A stretch of 64,000 nucleotides of DNA from a phage, in sequence record OZ336094.1. One strand, written 5' to 3'. How positions within the stretch are numbered: position 1 is the stretch's first letter; every line of letters begins with the position of its first letter. Shown piece after piece: positions 29,838-42,026 of this stretch. The notes beneath the pieces were generated by a model. That model ran no database searches, was not told where the DNA came from, and saw only the letters and a program-made list of their open reading frames with translations. Position numbers and translations under genes: made by a program.

Positions 29838-29872
29838 CGTGGAAAATAAAAGCCAGCTTAATGCTGGCTTTA
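29838..29872 (-). terminator. Intrinsic terminator (AGCCAGC-TTAAT-GCTGGCT + T-run) upstream of nrdD
   Basis: 7-bp stem followed on minus strand by tttatttt. Confidence 0.6.
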
Positions 29873-29918: not shown

Positions 29919-30869
29919 TTAGTCAAGGTTTTTGGTAATACGTGTACAACCGTCAGAAGTCAAACCGTCAACTTGAGTTTCCCAAGTGCCATGAATATTT
30001 CGGAACAATGTTGTTACACCTTTTGGTTCATTAATAATGATTGCCATAACAAGTTTAGGATCGATAACAGACATAATCTTTTCCTCAATACCCTCTGTAA
30101 TAACATTATTACGCACAATATTAATTACATCTTCTTGTACAGTAAGAGTGCTTACGTTCTTAAGAGTATATACCTGCTGCGTAGTGTAAATGATACGAAC
30201 ATAACTTACAGAACGAGTAGGCACAGGTTTACGTGGACGACGAAAACGTGGTTTTGGTGAAGATTCAGTCTTACTTTCATTTTTTGAATAATACTCCTCA
30301 AACAGTTTAGTAAATGTTTTTACATCAACTACAAACCGATCTTTCCTATATGGAGAATTCTTATGTGCACCATTAATACCACTGTTTTCATCGAAGAAAG
30401 TAATGTTTTCTTCAGTTGAATATGTTAGATAATGGTCTGCATCTTTCCAATGTGGTTGTGGACAATGCGGATTACAAACGGAAAGCAGATAACTAATATC
30501 TTCTTCCGTTGCACTAGTATCCAGGAAACACGTATTATGCACAGTCAGTTGTACTTTTGCAACCATATCCATTTCTTTATCCTCGTTGGCAAGATATTCA
30601 GTACGAATAATCTCCAGAAAACCTTCAGGTGTTACTTCCATAAATGTGTATTCAGGGTGAAGTTCCATATATTCAAATCCACAACCATCTAATTGCTGTA
30701 GGAAGTTAGGATAGAAGAACAAGTCATTAACACTATGAATCAGATCATTGATTTCTGCTTCAGATGTGTAACCAAAACTTTTGTGAATTGCTTCATTAAG
30801 AATATGCAGGATACCCATCTCTTCTGCTGCTTTTTTAACTTCCAGTTTATTAGCGTAAAATGCAATCAT
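29919..30869 (-). CDS. Hypothetical protein, 316 aa
   Basis: Track ORF; no motif recognised. Confidence 0.45.
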   Translation of the reverse strand: MIAFYANKLEVKKAAEEMGILHILNEAIHKSFGYTSEAEINDLIHSVNDLFFYPNFLQQLDGCGFEYMELHPEYTFMEVTPEGFLEIIRTEYLANEDKEMDMVAKVQLTVHNTCFLDTSATEEDISYLLSVCNPHCPQPHWKDADHYLTYSTEENITFFDENSGINGAHKNSPYRKDRFVVDVKTFTKLFEEYYSKNESKTESSPKPRFRRPRKPVPTRSVSYVRIIYTTQQVYTLKNVSTLTVQEDVINIVRNNVITEGIEEKIMSVIDPKLVMAIIINEPKGVTTLFRNIHGTWETQVDGLTSDGCTRITKNLD

Positions 30870-30886: not shown

Positions 30887-31321
30887 TTAGTTTAAAATTT
30901 CTTTGGCAATGGTAGAAGCAAGTTTTCCATCATATTGATTAGGATACTCTGCTTTAAGGTGTTTCATCATATCTGGCATTTTCTTGCCTGTCAAGGCAAA
31001 TTCTTCAGCAATCGCTCGAAGGTCATCTTCAGATAGCATTTCTGGTAAATATTTTTCCAGGGTGGTGATATCACGCATAGCTCGCTCACATTTGCTAATG
31101 GAGGCATTAACTTTCTTAAGCGAGTCTAGTTCCTCTTTAGCGTGTGCAATACCAATCTTAACAATGTTAATCATAATATCATCTTCTGATTTATTCAGAT
31201 TTGCCTTTTGAGTACGAGCAAGGTCAAACTCACCAATAATATTAGTTAACAAAGCAAAAGCACCCTTATCGGTTGTACGTGCTAAGATACGATCTGCTTT
31301 CATTTGTGTCACAATAGACAT
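30887..31321 (-). CDS. GatB/YqeY-domain protein
   Basis: 144 aa; pattern LSEDDLRAIAEEF...GKKMPDMMKHLKAEY resembles the YqeY/GatB C-terminal domain. Confidence 0.45.
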   Translation of the reverse strand: MSIVTQMKADRILARTTDKGAFALLTNIIGEFDLARTQKANLNKSEDDIMINIVKIGIAHAKEELDSLKKVNASISKCERAMRDITTLEKYLPEMLSEDDLRAIAEEFALTGKKMPDMMKHLKAEYPNQYDGKLASTIAKEILN

Positions 31322-31333
31322 TCTATTCTCCTC

Positions 31334-31906
31334 TTATTTGCTAATGCTTTGAATCTTATTTACAACACGGTTTATTGCCAGTGAAGCCCTAGGCTCCGCA
31401 ATACCTGTTGCATAGATATAAGGATGACCTTTTGGAGACTCCCTCATACCGAATGAACCTAATTCTAAACCATATTCATCCTCTACGTCAACCCCAATAT
31501 TAGTGGGTACTAAATATGTTTTAACTCCATAATAAGTAGAGAAGAAACAGCGCATAGAGTTAGCATACTCTTCAATTGTAGCATCAGGGTAGAACTCAAT
31601 CAACTCCAATTTCAAGAAAATATTAAAATGGGTATCATCTAAATTTTCTTCTGTGCGGTAACATGGTGTTAGTGCCATATACGGATTACCTGCTGCAAAT
31701 TCAAAACCATCCTTCTCCATTTGCAGGAAAGATTGTTCTGCACTAGCTACATAGTATTTACCGTTAGGATGCCCTAATGGGCGATCCTCTTTATTTTCTG
31801 GTAGTGTATACGCCAGTATATCAGCATCCACGAGATATGGAACTTCTAACATTTGTGCAAATCGACCATAGTAATCAATAGCTTGAGCTATTACTGCAAC
31901 ATTCAT
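31334..31906 (-). CDS. Class II aminoacyl-tRNA-synthetase-like catalytic-core protein (AsnA/EpmA-like paralog)
   Basis: Motif-2-like LTPCYRTEENLDDTHFNIFLKLELIEFY and motif-3-like GIAEPRASLAI; only 190 aa, so a truncated core. Confidence 0.35.
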   Translation of the reverse strand: MNVAVIAQAIDYYGRFAQMLEVPYLVDADILAYTLPENKEDRPLGHPNGKYYVASAEQSFLQMEKDGFEFAAGNPYMALTPCYRTEENLDDTHFNIFLKLELIEFYPDATIEEYANSMRCFFSTYYGVKTYLVPTNIGVDVEDEYGLELGSFGMRESPKGHPYIYATGIAEPRASLAINRVVNKIQSISK

Positions 31907-32154
31907 GATCGACCTCCATTGCGGAATGCACGTTTAGTAATGTTTGACATAGTGATCAAATCTTGAAGCGTCATACCAGGAAAATGCTGTTCAAGAACAC
32001 CTTCAACAGCGCCTACAATATCTGATAACTCAATAAGTTGCATCAGCTTGCAATCTTGATCAATAGCATCTTGAAGTTCATAAAGCTCTTCTTGAATCTT
32101 AGCAACAGAACCATATTCCTCTTTGCTAATCTCCTTCAAATGATACCCTGCCAC
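31903..32154 (-). CDS. MazG/HisE-like nucleoside triphosphate pyrophosphohydrolase domain protein
   Basis: 83 aa; EExxE...D pattern (IQEELYELQDAI...ELSDIVGAVEGV). Confidence 0.4.
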   Translation of the reverse strand: MAGYHLKEISKEEYGSVAKIQEELYELQDAIDQDCKLMQLIELSDIVGAVEGVLEQHFPGMTLQDLITMSNITKRAFRNGGRS

Positions 32155-32164
32155 TTTAACCCCC

Positions 32165-33901
32165 TTAGTTTACCAGTTTATTTATGTCTGGTAAAAGATT
32201 TATTTCACCTAAGAAATCACCTTCACCTTCCTCTAGCCAACTCTCATATGCTTGTGCATGATTATAGTTACCATCAAAAGAATCTGCAACAAATTTTTCT
32301 ACAGTTTTTCGAGATGTGCCAGCGCCAAATACACCAAGTTTAATACCATTGATCGGTAAAGTGGTGCTTGTTGGTACTTTCTCTGTTGCAACACGATTGA
32401 TATCTATAATCTCCTGTACGGTTGTGTTCCATTGTAAGCATTTAACACAACGGGTATGCGCTACATACAGTAGGTTTCGCTCTGCCTCTTCTAGTCCTAC
32501 CCATTCACCAGTCTTTTTATCATAGTTGGAAGGAAAATCATTAGCAACAATAACCTGATCCCACTCCAAACCTTTAGACTTGTGTGCTGTAGTCAATGTG
32601 ACTTTTGCTGTAGGAGAATTTCTATGCGTTCTAAGTGTATGTGCTATAGTGTTTGCCTTACCAGAAACTACGATGTTTAACAAGCGTTTAGCATCTGGAT
32701 CAGCCTCTGCACACTCAACAAATTCATCCCAGTCTGCGTAAGGTAATACAGTTTCATGTTTTACTTTCTCAATATCTCCTCTCCGAAGAGCATTAACACT
32801 ATCTACCATAGAGATAAAATCCCTGGTATCTACGTTAATAATAATTTCTTCCCCATCTGCAATACGATCCATTGCCTCCATAAGCAAGGTTAAATTCTTG
32901 CGAAAGATGATAGTGTAAGGTTTTGTATAGTCTACAACATCTGATTTGTAGCTACCTACTACAGTATCAAAGCCTTTACCAACCAAAGGGTGACGCAAAG
33001 GTTCTTTATCGCTTAAAATCATATTGGCAATGTTTGCCACTTTGGGGCCAAAACGGAAGCAAGCAGTTAATGGAAGCTCTGCCCCATATGTAGATGTTTC
33101 CTTCATCATATTTTGGCTTCCACGGAACTGGTAGATGCTCTGATATTCGTCACCCACCACTACTACTTGTTTTGCAGATTTAGCATTTCGCAGAATAGAC
33201 AAGAATGCAGGGTTAACATCCTGGAATTCATCACCAAAAATAATATCATAACCAAGATCAGCACCAGACAATTCAAACAATTTTACATAGGTGTCATGCG
33301 TCATCAAAGTATCTGTGTTAGGATCGATGCGCTCTCGCCACAATTGTTTTGCATACTTAACTACTTCTGTAATTAGTTTGTGTTCGTTAATACCTTTTCT
33401 TTTAATATCTGCAAGATGTACACTAGGAAAATGTTTACGGCTGATAAAAGGATCATCCGAAAATTCAAACTTACCTACGGTTTGCTTGATCATTAAACCG
33501 ATCATAGCACGAGTTAAAAGTGTTTTCCCTCGTTTATCAATAAGATTATTAATCTTAAATTTCTTTGCTATCTCGCTACCTGTACCTGCAACGTTAACAT
33601 ACTGTCCTTCTGGTCGTGACAGTTTTGCACGTAAACGATGATCCAGGAATTGATAGCAAATAGAATGCAATGTACGGCATTCTACATTTAGTGGCATCTT
33701 ACGTCGTGCTTCTTCTGCCATGCTTTTATTGAAAGCTAAGTAAAGAATGCGATCTTCTGTACTGTTAGCCAGCAAATAAAGTGTTGACGTTTTGCCTGAT
33801 CCAGATTTAGCTTGGATAGTTAAAAAGCGATGGTCTGGAAAAGCCTCCTTAATAGCTGTTTGCTCTTCTGTTGGAGTGAAGCTCAACTCTTTCTTAGCCA
33901 T
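32165..33901 (-). CDS. UvrD/Rep-family (SF1) DNA helicase (start refined)
   Basis: Walker A AKSGSGKT, motif II GDEFQD; about 579 aa from refined start. Confidence 0.7.
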   Translation of the reverse strand: MAKKELSFTPTEEQTAIKEAFPDHRFLTIQAKSGSGKTSTLYLLANSTEDRILYLAFNKSMAEEARRKMPLNVECRTLHSICYQFLDHRLRAKLSRPEGQYVNVAGTGSEIAKKFKINNLIDKRGKTLLTRAMIGLMIKQTVGKFEFSDDPFISRKHFPSVHLADIKRKGINEHKLITEVVKYAKQLWRERIDPNTDTLMTHDTYVKLFELSGADLGYDIIFGDEFQDVNPAFLSILRNAKSAKQVVVVGDEYQSIYQFRGSQNMMKETSTYGAELPLTACFRFGPKVANIANMILSDKEPLRHPLVGKGFDTVVGSYKSDVVDYTKPYTIIFRKNLTLLMEAMDRIADGEEIIINVDTRDFISMVDSVNALRRGDIEKVKHETVLPYADWDEFVECAEADPDAKRLLNIVVSGKANTIAHTLRTHRNSPTAKVTLTTAHKSKGLEWDQVIVANDFPSNYDKKTGEWVGLEEAERNLLYVAHTRCVKCLQWNTTVQEIIDINRVATEKVPTSTTLPINGIKLGVFGAGTSRKTVEKFVADSFDGNYNHAQAYESWLEEGEGDFLGEINLLPDINKLVN

Positions 33902-33902
33902 T

Positions 33903-34379
33903 TCAACCTCTCTTAATTTGTTTAACAAGCATAGGAACAAAATCTCGTTTTAAAATTTGTTCAATAATATGATCAGGTAGCTGTTGGAAATTATAATTAA
34001 AAGCTACTGTCTCACCTTTAGGTGTTTCTACCCGCACATATAACATGTTACGAAGTTTATCCACTTGTGCTGTATATTCTAAACCATGTAATTGATGCAT
34101 TGCAAACATCAAATCATCAGTTTCAGTTTGGAATCTATCATTTGCTTGCATTAAGGACAAGGTAAAAGGTAGATTTTCCCTAAGAGCCACCTTCTTAGGA
34201 ACTAGTGAAGGAAAATACTCACCAATAACTTCCTGTGTAAGCTGGATACACTCTTTTTCAAGTTGGTTTTGTTCCTTAAGTTCACAAACACTTTTTTGTA
34301 AAGTGTTAACCTCTTTTTGCAAAGCTGCTAGTTGAGCACTTAACTTTCTTTTTTGATTACGACCAAAACGTTTAGACAT
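33903..34379 (-). CDS. Hypothetical protein with N-terminal coiled coil, 158 aa
   Basis: Track ORF; heptad-like N-terminus. Confidence 0.45.
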   Translation of the reverse strand: MSKRFGRNQKRKLSAQLAALQKEVNTLQKSVCELKEQNQLEKECIQLTQEVIGEYFPSLVPKKVALRENLPFTLSLMQANDRFQTETDDLMFAMHQLHGLEYTAQVDKLRNMLYVRVETPKGETVAFNYNFQQLPDHIIEQILKRDFVPMLVKQIKRG

Positions 34380-37787: not shown

Positions 37788-38060
37788 TTACATAGGTACA
37801 ACAGAATCTGTTTTGAAGTCGTACATATGATTTACACCTGTGATTTTTGACATAGAGATTGCACGTTTAGCACCTGCAATTACCTGGTCTGTCTTCTTAA
37901 TCTCTTCACGGAACTTACGTACAGTTAAAGAGAAGAAACGATGATCCATCCATTGACGATTCACACGATCACGCTTGAAGTGACGGAAATCTTCAATCTG
38001 CTTATTGCGCAATCGGCGCAGTACATGCAATAGTTGATAGTAAGGGTGTTTATTTTTCAT
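37788..38060 (-). CDS. Hypothetical basic protein, 90 aa
   Basis: Track ORF; Arg/Lys-rich. Confidence 0.4.
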   Translation of the reverse strand: MKNKHPYYQLLHVLRRLRNKQIEDFRHFKRDRVNRQWMDHRFFSLTVRKFREEIKKTDQVIAGAKRAISMSKITGVNHMYDFKTDSVVPM

Positions 38061-38063
38061 AAA

Positions 38064-38492
38064 TTATTCTCCAAATCGAAAGTCGTCAATATCATCAAAC
38101 CATACACAATAGCGAGTCCTTTCTTTTTCTGTTGCAGACATTGTTTCAACAGCTTTAGGACTAAGCACAACAGGAATGTAACGAATAGGTCGTTCATAAT
38201 AGTAGCCATACTTTTCTGTATTAGCTGCCTCAAAGACTTTACGGCGTTCTTCAAGATCTTCTATGGTGAATCCTACCATATAACCATCATATTTGCTACC
38301 CCATCCTTCCTCACTTTCAACAATTGGGATATAAAAGCCGTTACGCGTCCCTGACACTGATTTTTCTTGAGCCTGAAGGCAAGCCTCCCATCCTGCTTTA
38401 AAGACGTTATAGAGCGATTTACGCACGTTATGAGTGCCGCTTTCGCTTGCTGGATAGAGTTCATTAAACTTGTCTTGGATTTGTTGTGTCAT
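38064..38492 (-). CDS. Hypothetical protein, 142 aa
   Basis: Track ORF. Confidence 0.45.
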   Translation of the reverse strand: MTQQIQDKFNELYPASESGTHNVRKSLYNVFKAGWEACLQAQEKSVSGTRNGFYIPIVESEEGWGSKYDGYMVGFTIEDLEERRKVFEAANTEKYGYYYERPIRYIPVVLSPKAVETMSATEKERTRYCVWFDDIDDFRFGE

Positions 38493-38635
38493 ACTCGCCC
38501 CTTAGTGATTATTTGACCAGCTAAACAAATAGCTTGTAGTACAATAAAGAAGTAGCCTAATTTTACACTACCCAATACCCAGAATGCAATGTTTGCAAAC
38601 AAACAAAAAGCAATATTAAGTCTAAAGAATAACAT

Positions 38636-38836
38636 TTAATCCCCTTCATATTTAGGTAAAGGCATATATGCCACAATAGGAGGGTAATCAAAGTGAAAAT
38701 GATGGTTCACCACAATAATCTTACCAGACATACTTTTATGCACTTCACAATACCCTTTTCCACCATCTTCCATTACCACCACATACTCACCTAGTGGGAT
38801 ATCGTATGGATCTTCTACTTTTACCCATTCTGTCAT
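38636..38836 (-). CDS. Hypothetical protein, 66 aa
   Basis: Track ORF in overlapping array. Confidence 0.4.
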   Translation of the reverse strand: MTEWVKVEDPYDIPLGEYVVVMEDGGKGYCEVHKSMSGKIIVVNHHFHFDYPPIVAYMPLPKYEGD

Positions 38837-39102
38837 TTTGGAAACACCTCTTGTCCATCTTCATGCATTTGTAGTAAAGTTTCACAGATTTCATACACAT
38901 CTTGATATGTTACAACTGAGAGATCAGATTCTTGATCTTCGACAAGCATAGCACAAAGAGCTTTAATGTCAATACCTTTACAATGTTCCGTAGCTATACG
39001 GTACATTTCACCATCCTCCCAAACAATTGGTTGCGGAAGCAAAACGTCTGTACCATCTTCACAAGTTACAATGTAGTCTGCAATATTATCACGAATTTTC
39101 AT
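38833..39102 (-). CDS. Hypothetical protein, 89 aa
   Basis: Track ORF, 4-nt overlap with neighbours. Confidence 0.4.
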   Translation of the reverse strand: MKIRDNIADYIVTCEDGTDVLLPQPIVWEDGEMYRIATEHCKGIDIKALCAMLVEDQESDLSVVTYQDVYEICETLLQMHEDGQEVFPK

Positions 39103-39356
39103 TGTACTACCCCCTTAAATCCAGATGTGCTGCCAGTTTTAACTTTTGCTTTAAGATGTTCCAACTCTACCATAGGTGTTGCTACTTGTATAGGATTTTC
39201 CTCAACCTCATGGATATAATATTCATAATAAGCATACTTACCAATAGAATGCAGATACTTAATTGCATGTTCAGGCGAATCTGCTTCGACATACCCTAAA
39301 TCTTTTGTGGTACGACCTTCGCAATCACCTTCGGTAGTTACATGATAAAGTGTCAT
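39099..39356 (-). CDS. Hypothetical protein, 85 aa
   Basis: Track ORF. Confidence 0.4.
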   Translation of the reverse strand: MTLYHVTTEGDCEGRTTKDLGYVEADSPEHAIKYLHSIGKYAYYEYYIHEVEENPIQVATPMVELEHLKAKVKTGSTSGFKGVVQ

Positions 39357-39517
39357 AAAACCTCCTCATAGTAAGGTAAAGCCTTGATCAGTTGTTCTGA
39401 AGTGCCATTTTGCACCCACGTAACACCCTTGTCAACAGAAACTTACCCTTTTTTGTCAATAAATTTACGCAGACAGCCAGTGAACTTATTTTTGTAGATA
39501 GCCATGTTTACTCCTTG

Positions 39518-39874
39518 TTACATCCACAGATTATGAAAATACTTAGCAAACAAAATGCGACCTTCTAAACGATCTTGCCGCTGTTTTTCATTAACTTCTT
39601 CTGGTGGAGTTGAGTCCTTAAAAGAAGACTCTATTTTTTCAAGAATTTCTAACCAGTGTTCTGCTGCTCGTTCTTCCATATAAGGTAGATAGTCACCTTT
39701 AGCGTGTGGGTACATCCGACGAAGTAACCCACTAGGAATTTTAACATTGTTTGTGGCTATCACTTTTGCACGATATGCAGAAAGTGCATTGTAGATCAGT
39801 TTACTTAGTGTCACATCTAAGTCAAGAAGATCACTCTCTTCAAATTGAATTTCATCGTGTACAATTTTCATCAT
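39518..39874 (-). CDS. Hypothetical protein, 118 aa
   Basis: Track ORF. Confidence 0.4.
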   Translation of the reverse strand: MMKIVHDEIQFEESDLLDLDVTLSKLIYNALSAYRAKVIATNNVKIPSGLLRRMYPHAKGDYLPYMEERAAEHWLEILEKIESSFKDSTPPEEVNEKQRQDRLEGRILFAKYFHNLWM

Positions 39875-40155
39875 GCTTTCTCCCGATCTGCCTCTAATTT
39901 CAATAAGAAAGCTGTATACTCTTCCGAGCCTTGGTGTAAAAACATGCGATAAGAGCTTACTAGTTTCTTCGTTGTCGTATAACGTTCCATTTCCCCAACA
40001 ACACCTCCACCCAAGGTGTAGAGCACAACACCCTCAAACCCAACATGAGTTACTACTTCAATCAAATCTGTGTTATCCCAATGGTAGTTAGGTGACACAA
40101 TAAGATCGCCAACTGCCAATTTAATGTTTGCTGCTTCGTCTTGTGAATAGTACAT
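39871..40155 (-). CDS. Hypothetical protein, 94 aa
   Basis: Track ORF. Confidence 0.4.
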   Translation of the reverse strand: MYYSQDEAANIKLAVGDLIVSPNYHWDNTDLIEVVTHVGFEGVVLYTLGGGVVGEMERYTTTKKLVSSYRMFLHQGSEEYTAFLLKLEADREKA

Positions 40156-40167
40156 TTTGTTCTCCTC

Positions 40168-40458
40168 TCACATTAAGACACGTTTTGTATTGATGGGGGC
40201 ATTGTCGAACATGTTTATCACTTTGTCAAGTTTGTGTATTAACTCGTTCGTAATGTTCCACTCTTTGTATGATCTCCATTGCTTCTTATTCTCACCTACC
40301 TGGTGTAAAACTTTGATTGGTGCGTTCAAACGTACATTGCGTTCTTTATCCTCTTCAAAAGAGGCTAACCATTTTTCGTTATGCCCATGAACAGCAATAA
40401 TAATGCCAAAACCATCAAAAGTTTCTGTAATATTCTTAGTTGCTAGTGTGATGTTCAT
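40168..40458 (-). CDS. Hypothetical protein, 96 aa (first gene of the minus-strand block)
   Basis: Track ORF next to the divergent intergenic region. Confidence 0.4.
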   Translation of the reverse strand: MNITLATKNITETFDGFGIIIAVHGHNEKWLASFEEDKERNVRLNAPIKVLHQVGENKKQWRSYKEWNITNELIHKLDKVINMFDNAPINTKRVLM

Positions 40459-40517
40459 ATCTAACCTCTTTTGTTACGATACACACAGAGTACCAGAAAT
40501 TAATTTCAGATCAAGTA

Positions 40518-40547
40518 TTGACATACTGTTTTATTGTGCTAATCTTA
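40518..40547 (+). promoter_or_regulatory. Sigma70-like promoter (TTGACA-N18-TAATCT) at the strand-switch region
   Basis: Exact TTGACA at about 40518; AT-rich spacer; precedes RBS gaggag and ATG at 40578. Confidence 0.4.
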
Positions 40548-40577
40548 ATGCATACACAAATGAGAGGAGATAAACGA

Positions 40578-41129
40578 ATGCAAAACACCGATCTGACTTG
40601 GATAGAAGCCAAAGAAGCAATGTTAAAAGGCAAGCGCGTTAAACATAAATACTTTTGCGAAGGAGAATGGTTTGAAATGCGTAACCGATCCATTGTAGAT
40701 GAAAAAGGGAATGACATGCAACAATGGTTCAAAAATGAAATTTGGCAGGGAACAGGTTGGTCTATAGTTGAAGAGCAGCCTAGCCCAAGCGCACTGTTTA
40801 GCCCTATTATGTATCGCGTTATCGGTGCTTTAGTTGTTGATCACGGGATTGCAGTGGAAAAAGAATGCTGGGAAGAGGTATCTTTTTTCAACCTGGCTTC
40901 TTATGCAAAAAGCCATATGCACTTGTTTGAAGAAGGGGATGAATTTGTTCTTCGTATGCGATATGGCAAAGAATTCAGATTACCACTTGATAACGATGTA
41001 GACACTGTTGTAAAATGGTTAGCAGAGCATTATGCTTACGATGCAATTTGTGGTCGCAGCTTCGGCAACGAACGCTGGGACATGATTTGTGAAAAATATG
41101 ATTTTGAGCCGGAATACGGAGTTTTATAA
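40578..41129 (+). CDS. Hypothetical protein, 183 aa (start refined)
   Basis: Track ORF 40518..41129 begins at a TTG inside the promoter; ATG at 40578 has RBS gagaggag. Confidence 0.5.
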   Translation: MQNTDLTWIEAKEAMLKGKRVKHKYFCEGEWFEMRNRSIVDEKGNDMQQWFKNEIWQGTGWSIVEEQPSPSALFSPIMYRVIGALVVDHGIAVEKECWEEVSFFNLASYAKSHMHLFEEGDEFVLRMRYGKEFRLPLDNDVDTVVKWLAEHYAYDAICGRSFGNERWDMICEKYDFEPEYGVL

Positions 41130-41380
41130 TGTTAAGCATCAAACCTAAAATGATAACAGAAGACGAAGCAGACTTTATTTTCAAATGTGGACGTGTATGG
41201 AGAGAATTCACAAAAGGAAATGAAGTGGTGGTTGTTGTCGAACACAAGATATCTATTCAGGATCTGTTTGGACAATATGTTGATGTTATTAAATTAGGTA
41301 TTGACAAAGGTTTAGTTGAGGTGTTAACCTTAGATCAAGTTGAAGCAGAGCATCTCGATAAAGTAGTGGTTGAATTTTAA
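41129..41380 (+). CDS. Hypothetical protein, 83 aa
   Basis: Track ORF; TAATG stop/start overlap. Confidence 0.45.
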   Translation: MLSIKPKMITEDEADFIFKCGRVWREFTKGNEVVVVVEHKISIQDLFGQYVDVIKLGIDKGLVEVLTLDQVEAEHLDKVVVEF

Positions 41381-41400
41381 AATACAGATGGGAGAAAGGT

Positions 41401-41574
41401 ATGAGTTTCTTTGTTACAGTATTTATGGCTATCTGGATTGTAGTCTCACTCGTTCTTTTCCTGGTGGGTTGTCTGGAAGAGATTAAGAAAGCGGTTATTT
41501 GCGGTTTCTTTGGCTTTATTATCTCTCCTGCCTGGATGTGGTTCTTCATTATGATTGGTTTCCTTAAAAGGTAA
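41401..41574 (+). CDS. Hypothetical small membrane protein, 57 aa
   Basis: Hand-translated (MSFFVTVFMAIWIVVSLVLFLVGCLEE...), RBS gggagaaagg; two hydrophobic segments. Confidence 0.4.
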   Translation: MSFFVTVFMAIWIVVSLVLFLVGCLEEIKKAVICGFFGFIISPAWMWFFIMIGFLKR

Positions 41575-41588
41575 GTGAGGAATAAAGA

Positions 41589-42026
41589 ATGAGTAAAACA
41601 AACGCAATCGCAGATAAAGCAACGGATGTACTTCTGAACATGGTTAACGTCACTATTCAAACAATGAGTGATGTTGTGGAGTTTGGAAAACAACAAATTC
41701 CAGAAGTAATCCATCAATTGTTAGTGTGGAAAGCAGTATCCGCAGGTTTATGGCAACTTTTTAGTATTTGCTTTATGTTTATTACTTTTATTGCTGTGCG
41801 GAACCTCGTAAAAGCAATTAAAGATAAAGAATGCCTGTGGTCACGAGATCGCTATGGTGAAGTATCTGCTTTACCTATTGTTGGCCTTGTTGTCTGTGCT
41901 TTCTTTTTCTTTTTAGGACTTGTTATTTTCTTTTCGAATTTTGATTGGCTAAAAATCATTATTGCACCAAAAGTGTATCTGATTGAATTTGCTGCTGATT
42001 TAATTCGTTCATCTCAACAAAAATAA
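41589..42026 (+). CDS. Hypothetical membrane protein, 145 aa
   Basis: RBS gtgaggaat; three or four hydrophobic segments. Confidence 0.5.
   Translation: MSKTNAIADKATDVLLNMVNVTIQTMSDVVEFGKQQIPEVIHQLLVWKAVSAGLWQLFSICFMFITFIAVRNLVKAIKDKECLWSRDRYGEVSALPIVGLVVCAFFFFLGLVIFFSNFDWLKIIIAPKVYLIEFAADLIRSSQQK

Follow-up and report, generated by a model that had tools for sequence, protein, structure and literature searches.

Several relatives of the class II aminoacyl-tRNA synthetases (aaRS) are stand-alone proteins. AsnA and EpmA (GenX, PoxA) are class II cores that join an activated carboxylate to an acceptor other than tRNA; the amino acid:[carrier protein] ligases (Bll0957, PDB 3mey) are aaRS homologues derived from seryl-tRNA synthetase (SerRS) that do not use tRNA; and HisZ is paired with HisG. 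The stand-alone paralogues compared here (HisZ, PylSc, the amino acid:[carrier protein] ligase, AsnA and GenX) have approximately 275-330 residues. The window analysed here, 64,000 nt of phage record OZ336094.1 on which all positions are numbered, encodes a free-standing minimal class II aaRS-type catalytic core that is approximately 100 residues shorter. Its gene (190 aa; 31334-31906, minus strand) lies directly downstream of the gene for an 83-aa, all-α, NTP (nucleoside triphosphate) pyrophosphohydrolase-like protein of the HisE/MazG type (31903-32154, minus strand, GTG start); the two genes form a conserved duo with obligate linkage, and the gene for a YqeY-domain protein that follows (144 aa; 30887-31321, minus strand) is a lineage-specific neighbour outside the conserved pair. 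We propose, at close to but short of an even chance, that the pair is an unrecognised kind of enzyme combining the smallest natural class II aaRS core (approximately 180 aa, essentially insertion-free) with an NTP pyrophosphohydrolase; its product would be an aminoacyl-nucleotide or another nucleotide conjugated to an amino acid, or else it would charge RNA 3' ends with no recognition of tRNA identity, and it would be used by large phages of many host phyla and by some bacteria of the Candidate Phyla Radiation (CPR).

The pathway logic of such a pair is known from other phages. In the MazZ-PurZ system of Z-genome phages and in T4 gp56-gp42-gp1, an NTP pyrophosphohydrolase supplies a nucleoside monophosphate (NMP) to a ligase or modifier, which is followed by a kinase; PurZ consumes an amino acid and a nucleoside triphosphate. 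PurZ, however, is an adenylosuccinate-synthetase homologue and does not have the class II aaRS fold. The comparison implies no homology, and phi92-type phages are not known to contain a modified base.

The three adjacent minus-strand genes at 30887-32154 described in the first-pass annotation are open reading frames (ORFs) at exactly these coordinates, and are real genes. Each has a full-length PHROG match (83-aa protein, phrog_6408, E 2.5e-43; 190-aa protein, phrog_4806, E 2.7e-71; 144-aa protein, phrog_1460, E 1.5e-36), each is an annotated coding sequence in Escherichia phage Paula (PAULA_0122, PAULA_0123 and PAULA_0124, orthologues of phi92 gp197, gp196 and gp195, respectively), and the region is covered in 56 phage records, which span at least 80% of the 4.2 kb round the three genes at no less than 95% identity. 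Paula itself (LR865361, Justusliebigvirus, phi92-like) is 100% identical over these 4.2 kb.

As a single query the 190-aa protein returns nothing significant in Pfam, NCBIfam or the PDB and nothing useful in PADLOC; a homologue search with it retrieved 58 relatives of approximately 180-200 aa, and the profile and alignment of the core were made from 35 relatives with 31-81% identity to the window protein. Searched against the PDB, this profile matches SerRS 2dq3 (E 7e-5) and AspRS (E 8e-4), and also human SerRS and PylRS. Motif 1 (G-Y-x4-V-P23), motif 2 (R84-x-E...F97-x-K-x-E101) and motif 3 (G-T167-G-x-A-x-P-R173) are invariant or nearly so in the 35 sequences; the peptide cited as motif-2-like in the first-pass annotation, YRTEENLDDTHFNIFLKLELIEFY, corresponds to residues 83-106 of the product. 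Both ATP-clamping arginines are kept, and the invariant positions of the alignment are S55, E57, Q58, T80-P81-C82, R84, F97, K99, E101, D140, E148, S151, T167, P172 and R173. The core has the antiparallel β-sheet catalytic fold of class II, and 185 of its 190 residues superpose on SerRS catalytic domains at 17-19% identity with a superposition figure of 17.1-17.5; the corresponding figures are 16.4-16.6 for HisZ, 16.4 for PylRS, 15.3 for the SerRS-derived Bll0957, and 13.4 for AsnA and GenX. All the parts for binding ATP and an α-amino acid appear to be retained, and the core is predicted to be catalytically intact.

SerRS from E. coli is a 430-aa protein in which the region aligned to the core begins at approximately residue 186; its segments PTAEV, TPCFRSE, HQFDKVE and GSGLAVGR correspond to ASAEQ, TPCYRTE, NIFLKLE and GTGIAEPR of the phage core. 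The invariant S55/E57, E101 and T167 align with T237/E239, E291 and S391 of the E. coli enzyme; the conservation of some of them extends to other class II enzymes. The TxE motif, the Glu ending motif 2 and the Thr/Ser of motif 3 are the ligands of the serine moiety in T. thermophilus SerRS structures, and serine is the best guess for the amino acid that the core would activate. The phage protein differs from the SerRS catalytic domain in that it begins at motif 1, with neither an N-terminal coiled-coil arm nor an anticodon-binding domain, is under half as long as SerRS, and is always accompanied by a HisE-like partner; it also has His where SerRS has Arg, this His lying four residues ahead of the adenine-stacking Phe in the class IIb pattern, and a motif-2 loop of approximately 6 residues between R-x-E and H-x-x-x-F, versus approximately 14 in SerRS. 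Because of the missing arm, the short motif-2 loop, and Pfam matches to class IIb and PheRS models, the 190-aa protein is considered a minimal class II core with SerRS as its nearest relative, though it falls outside SerRS itself. A functional SerRS is very improbable, since both the coiled-coil arm that binds the variable arm of tRNASer and the long motif-2 loop that contacts the acceptor stem are missing.

The other stand-alone paralogues fit less well. AsnA and EpmA share the short class IIb-type motif-2 loop with the core; SerRS superposes better on it than AsnA or GenX does, so an asparagine synthetase of the AsnA type was rejected, and the core is not AsnA-like, a type that the first-pass annotation had mentioned. 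With respect to HisZ-HisG, the phage core keeps the catalytic arginines, has no HisG, and bears no sequence-level similarity to HisRS or HisZ; the core was not assigned to HisZ because of this lack of a HisRS-like sequence and because no phosphoribosyltransferase-type gene recurs as a neighbour in the 99 loci surveyed (described below). The amino acid:[carrier protein] ligases differ from the pair in that the 83-aa partner is not a carrier protein, its invariant residues being the HisE/MazG metal site. No adjacent carrier with an invariant phosphopantetheinylated serine exists and the partner's invariants are acidic metal ligands, which excludes that system; the candidate serine of the partner, in ELSD, is not conserved and is A, C or T in many members.

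The 83-aa protein, as a single query, gives nothing useful in the PDB, NCBIfam or PADLOC and matches Pfam PRA-PH weakly (E 0.03; 15.2 bits, below the cut-off of 21.3); its HisE/MazG membership is supported because of family-wide and structural evidence, not the single-sequence Pfam score. PRA-PH is matched by 41 of 56 diverse HisE-like members (best E 2.6e-5) and MazG by 5, while the best PDB matches of the HisE-like family profile are Sulfolobus MazG 1vmg and three HisE structures. The partner shares with HisE/MazG the helical-bundle fold and the signature (S/G)-Y ... K-G ... K-x-x-E-E-x-x-E ... E-x-x-D: its N-terminal G-Y-H...K-G aligns on S-Y...K-G of HisE, and its K-x-x-E-E-x-x-E and E-x-x-D align on the same motifs of 1vmg and 2a7w. 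Invariant in the 56 sequences are Y4, H5, I9, K19, E22, E23, E26, E42 and D45, and D29 is invariant in a 25-row alignment. These data support the MazG/HisE-like NTP pyrophosphohydrolase assignment made in the first-pass annotation, with a predicted metal site that is intact. Unlike HisE, the 83-aa partner has no histidine-pathway context and is obligately coupled or fused to an aaRS-type core. In the T4-like Acinetobacter phages at loci L025 and L039 (4357-4977), approximately 120 additional residues follow the HisE-like domain at its C-terminus in the same protein; the annotation of Acinetobacter phage KARL-1 (L002) makes the distal portion of this extension a gene of its own (79 aa) between the two partners.

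The linkage of the two genes was surveyed in 84 phage loci (80 from IMG/VR) and 15 loci from metagenome-assembled genome (MAG) and genome records, giving 99 loci in 63 lineage groups. A HisE-like gene lies on the same strand within approximately 1.5 kb of the core in 82 of the 84 phage loci, directly upstream in 49 and fused in 6, and the partner is likewise present in 13 of the 15 MAG and genome-record loci. Most of the 49 loci with the gene directly upstream show an ATGA overlap or a gap of at most 20 nt. Among four distant phages, the HisE-like gene immediately precedes the core in Cronobacter phage CR3 and Caulobacter phage CcrBL9, is one gene from it in KARL-1, and is fused to its C-terminus in Microcystis phage MaMV-DC; the genes that intervene between the partners in some phages are heterogeneous. 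In the window, the stop codon of the 83-aa gene and the start codon of the 190-aa gene overlap as ATGA (31903-31906, minus strand), with GGAGG a few bases upstream, an arrangement that indicates translational coupling as read from the sequence. C-terminal fusions of the HisE-like domain to the core account for 9 of the 194 core-family proteins retrieved (gp129 of MaMV-DC is such a fusion), and in these about 8-11 residues separate the motif-3 arginine from the G-Y-H segment. Fusion and coupling suggest that the two proteins act together as one enzyme; a mirror-tree of the two families gave a moderate correlation (r 0.58; 0.34 for distant pairs) and was uninformative. Neighbour clustering over the 99 loci revealed no universal third gene beyond the pair, the commonest recurring neighbours being RlaP (7 of 63 lineage groups) and NADAR, DUF4326, NAD-salvage and deoxyribosyltransferase-like genes (4 each).

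YqeY is not part of this unit. The first-pass annotation had treated the three genes as a trio; YqeY adjoins the pair in only 2 of the 99 loci, both near-identical to Paula, and the phi92 group alone has it co-transcribed with the pair. The 144-aa protein is a free-standing member of the YqeY family, judging by its match to Pfam YqeY (PF09424; 30.3 bits, over the cut-off of 27) and to the structures of B. subtilis YqeY 1ng6 (E 1.1e-4) and 8xjg (E 0.01); the YqeY domain also occurs at the C-terminus of GatB and of Deinococcus GlnRS. The YqeY half of the earlier "YqeY/GatB-type" label is thus upheld, and its GatB/amidotransferase half is rejected because YqeY is the sole Pfam family above cut-off, neither a GatB catalytic-domain nor an NCBIfam match was found, and the protein has only 144 aa, whereas GatB consists of an N-terminal catalytic (cradle) domain followed by helical and YqeY-like tail domains. 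YqeY genes without the pair occur in Vibrio, Sinorhizobium, T5-like and jumbo phages, and the Acinetobacter phages (61 core-bearing records) are missing from the breakdown of YqeY-bearing records. YqeY is poorly characterised even in bacteria, where links to bS21 operons and to GatB/GlnRS-type domains have been described (PMC13374519). In Paula, it is probably a translation-associated gene that moves independently of the pair and has ended up in its operon; a benefit in this lineage is conceivable, but the HisE-like/core module would not require it.

The core family is large. A HMMER scan of 1.84 billion cluster representatives, in which members were counted as sequence clusters at 50% identity, recovered 1,595 members at E ≤0.001 (approximately 1,600) and 1,075 at E ≤1e-30. 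Nearly all of the 150 members listed are 175-200 aa long, therefore the small size is native; of the truncated class II aaRS-like core in the first-pass annotation, the class II core holds by motifs, profile and superposition, and the truncation does not. Profile searches uphold all three folds, class II aaRS core, YqeY and HisE/MazG-like, against an assignment to unrelated folds, and overall the earlier interpretation is partly supported. The family's hosts are large phages and a few bacteria: the core gene is present in 273 phage records, those listed being approximately 140 kb or larger bar one 4-kb fragment, which include phi92-like and phAPEC8-like (Phapecoctavirus) Escherichia phages, Vequintavirinae such as CR3, T4-like Acinetobacter phages, Caulobacter/Brevundimonas giants, Microcystis phages, and a 635-kb uncultured phage; rV5-like, phiCbK-like and mega-phages are also among the lineages that carry the module. 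Two phage records, MG065645.1 and MG065639.1 ("Campylobacter phage A145/A150"), are labelled as Campylobacter jejuni phages, whereas their proteins are 99.5-100% identical to E. coli phi92-like genes and the genome size is the same; host mislabelling or contamination seems likely. Some members carry additional tails: core protein P0079 has a C-terminally fused tail ending CGGSPRCCP, which closely resembles the Cys-rich C-terminal tail ending CGG(G/S)PRCCP of the gene upstream of the pair in Certrevirus-type phages (L005, 2965-3714; L013-L016), and zinc-ribbon-like CxxC tails are found on members P0074, P0083, P0134, P0282 and P0325.

The genes near the pair point two ways, to nucleotide enzymes and to tRNA genes or tRNA-end repair. 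On the nucleotide side, a metagenome contig from the European Nucleotide Archive (ENA) (L103, 5805-7125) encodes a 252-aa fusion of a shikimate-kinase-like P-loop kinase (DTD and STGGS motifs) with the HisE-like domain, which overlaps the core gene; a DHQ-synthase-like gene is located approximately 1.8 kb upstream. A 798-kb contig of Candidatus Saccharibacteria (L098, 2881-7437) contains an operon in the order kinase, HisE-like, core beside a NUDIX gene; the whole block (NUDIX, AAA_28 kinase, the pair, and four ORFs without matches) is inserted in the str operon region, where rpsG and fusA flank it, and recurs on a second contig (L096). Both contigs are probably of the Saccharibacteria type, and the L098 copy is a cellular, or integrated, version of a module that is mostly phage-borne. 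The kinase of this block and gp142 of CcrBL9 both match phrog_2107 "thymidylate kinase"; in CcrBL9 (L003, 2742-7292), gp142 is a P-loop kinase approximately 1 kb upstream of the pair gp146/gp147, which itself lies inside an array of 16 tRNA genes. Nampt/NadM-Nudix, NADAR, DUF4326, deoxyribosyltransferase-like and HD genes occur near the pair in 3-4 lineage groups each. On the tRNA side, tRNA genes are found within 5 kb of the pair in 15 of the 63 lineage groups, RlaP in 7 and a CCA-adding enzyme in 2, and a Magnetococcales contig has pth and rplY near the pair; no consistent tRNA identity flanks it. The sirtuin/RNA-ligase neighbourhood of rV5 (PMC9503650) contains a "MazG superfamily pyrophosphatase" that is apparently a different gene from the HisE-like partner; in an rV5-like locus, the pair is near a CCA-adding enzyme, and this neighbourhood was not detected there.

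An amino-acid ligase and NTP pyrophosphatase pair that acts on a free nucleotide is the reading we favour, tentatively and at somewhat less than an even chance. The core would activate a small amino acid as the aminoacyl-adenylate and pass it on to an acceptor that is a free nucleotide or of nucleoside type, and not to a tRNA recognised in full; pyrophosphate would be cleaved by the HisE-like subunit from an ATP-like nucleotide that feeds, or results from, the transfer step. Following the logic of MazZ-PurZ or T4 gp56-gp42-gp1, the NTP would be converted to an NMP, the NMP derivatised, and the product re-phosphorylated by a kinase. This is favoured because the characterised members of the obligate partner's superfamily all act, to our knowledge, on free NTPs, because kinases are fused to or co-operonic with the pair, and because both proteins are acidic (family median isoelectric point, pI, 5.0 and 5.3) and the core lacks every tRNA-recognition element; the acidic pI, the approximately 6-residue motif-2 loop, and the absence of an N-terminal arm or anticodon-binding domain are also what count against the binding of a whole tRNA. 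Several points weigh on the other side. The kinase association is intermittent (roughly five lineages); tRNA genes, a CCA-adding enzyme or RlaP lie within approximately 5 kb in 20 of the 63 lineage groups, and YqeY adjoins the pair in this very window. The serine assignment is a lead that rests on motif similarity and on the serine-binding residues of SerRS, and in single-sequence Pfam scans the Ser/Thr/Pro/His/Gly model is hit by members less often than the class IIb (D/K/N) and PheRS models, so that any subclass given to the core is provisional. A physical interaction of the partners is predicted from fusions and gene coupling, and phi92/rV5-type phages are not known to carry modified DNA.

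The tRNA-associated contexts would be explained if the pair were directed at tRNA 3' ends, with the core binding the CCA end only and aminoacylating, protecting or servicing phage or host tRNAs, the HisE-like subunit being accessory, and YqeY of phi92-type phages supplying a tRNA-binding module in trans. We consider this the main rival reading, though an unlikely one. The location of the pair in or beside tRNA arrays and the pth and rplY genes of the Magnetococcales contig favour it, as does the proximity of the CCA-adding enzyme and of RlaP, which adds NMPs to damaged RNA 3' ends and restores the function of tRNAs (PMC12776372); YqeY is co-transcribed here, and its domain type resembles those of GatB and GlnRS, both involved in tRNA charging (PMC13374519). 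It is the HisE-like partner that is obligate, however, and not YqeY; tRNA regions of large phages gather many auxiliary genes, and the tRNAs beside the pair share no consistent identity. No HisE/MazG enzyme is known to act on RNA ends, both proteins are acidic, and the motif-2 loop, the acceptor-stem contact in class II aaRSs, is short in the core.

The SerRS-like character of the core, together with its lack of tRNA-binding parts, would also suit an enzyme of dinucleoside tetraphosphate (Ap4N) metabolism, in which the core forms the aminoacyl-adenylate solely as an intermediate and a second NTP, bound to the HisE-like subunit, attacks it, or in which the HisE-like part degrades Ap4N. SerRS reportedly makes Ap4A from seryl-adenylate (Belrhali et al. 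1995 Structure 3:341), and the partner is a predicted NTP-binding, metal-dependent module that, in the fusions, begins approximately a dozen residues behind the motif-3 arginine. The proposal is entirely by analogy, a complex that both made and hydrolysed Ap4N would need regulation to avoid a futile cycle, and no contextual gene points to Ap4A biology; we regard it as improbable. Little probability is likewise given to a regulatory pair, in which the aaRS-like protein would be a non-catalytic sensor of amino acid or ATP that switches the HisE-like pyrophosphatase, as HisZ does for HisG. That the database labels are right, with the core a small SerRS/HisRS or an AsnA-type asparagine synthetase and YqeY an Asp/Glu-tRNA amidotransferase subunit aiding host translation or Asn supply, is very improbable: the GenBank and PHROG labels and the class II motifs of the core speak for it, whereas the core has neither the tRNA-binding arm of SerRS nor an anticodon-binding domain in a family of 175-200 aa, AsnA and EpmA lie clearly further from the core, YqeY is the one family that the 144-aa protein matches above cut-off, with GatB catalytic-domain families absent, none of the three proteins is matched by an NCBIfam equivalog, and the obligate HisE-like partner would be left unexplained.

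The remainder of the locus is arranged as one predicted transcription unit in the order UvrD-type helicase, HisE-like gene, core, YqeY, a 316-aa ORF, and a terminator-like hairpin (29849-29871, minus strand) that was found by a terminator scan and closes the unit; PAULA_TERMINATOR_023 is annotated at the equivalent place in Paula. AGGGGG precedes the GTG start of the 83-aa gene and GAGGAG lies a few bases before the YqeY start. NrdD and NrdG are downstream of the unit in Paula, which places the pair between a UvrD-type helicase and NrdD/NrdG, a further link to nucleotide enzymes. The 316-aa ORF downstream of YqeY (29919-30869, minus strand) carries the phrog_15930 label "ribonucleotide reductase", which looks unfounded; sequence searches of Pfam, NCBIfam and the PDB gave no match for this ORF. 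The 64-kb window contains no tRNA genes, and kinase, RlaP and Cca homologues were absent from it in a sequence search. GC skew turns from negative to positive near 40 kb (approximately 38000-42000), which fits a change of coding strand where two divergent gene blocks meet.

The genes were already annotated in GenBank, under inconsistent names; what is new is the duo, its obligate pairing or fusion, and the size of the family. The core and YqeY are mislabelled in databases as seryl- or histidyl-tRNA synthetase and as tRNA amidotransferase: one 190-aa protein is variously "putative seryl-tRNA synthetase", "histidyl tRNA synthetase" or plain tRNA synthetase, and YqeY is named "Aspartyl/glutamyl-tRNA synthetase", "tRNA amidotransferase" or "Asn/Gln-tRNA amidotransferase subunit B". 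A "MazG-type ... fold" is named for the small HisE-like protein in one GenBank record, and an annotation inconsistency was recorded for 32165-33940 (minus strand) of the window and for the annotation of L001. Full-text literature searches found no paper that describes the core family, its size, or its pairing or fusion with the HisE-like protein; comparative-genomics surveys of jumbo-phage and NAD/ADP-ribose (ADPr) systems mention other MazG proteins and not this pair.

If the pair is a plain housekeeping helper, its value is limited to the correction of annotation. For aaRS evolution, an apparently active (predicted) natural class II core of approximately 180 residues would be a counterpart to the engineered minimal synthetases ("urzymes") and a test case for the abilities of a bare catalytic domain. 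For phage biology, the HisE-like/core pair is a very widespread auxiliary module; should its product be an amino-acid-nucleotide conjugate or a modified tRNA end, it would represent a new reaction in phage takeover, nucleotide metabolism or counter-defence.

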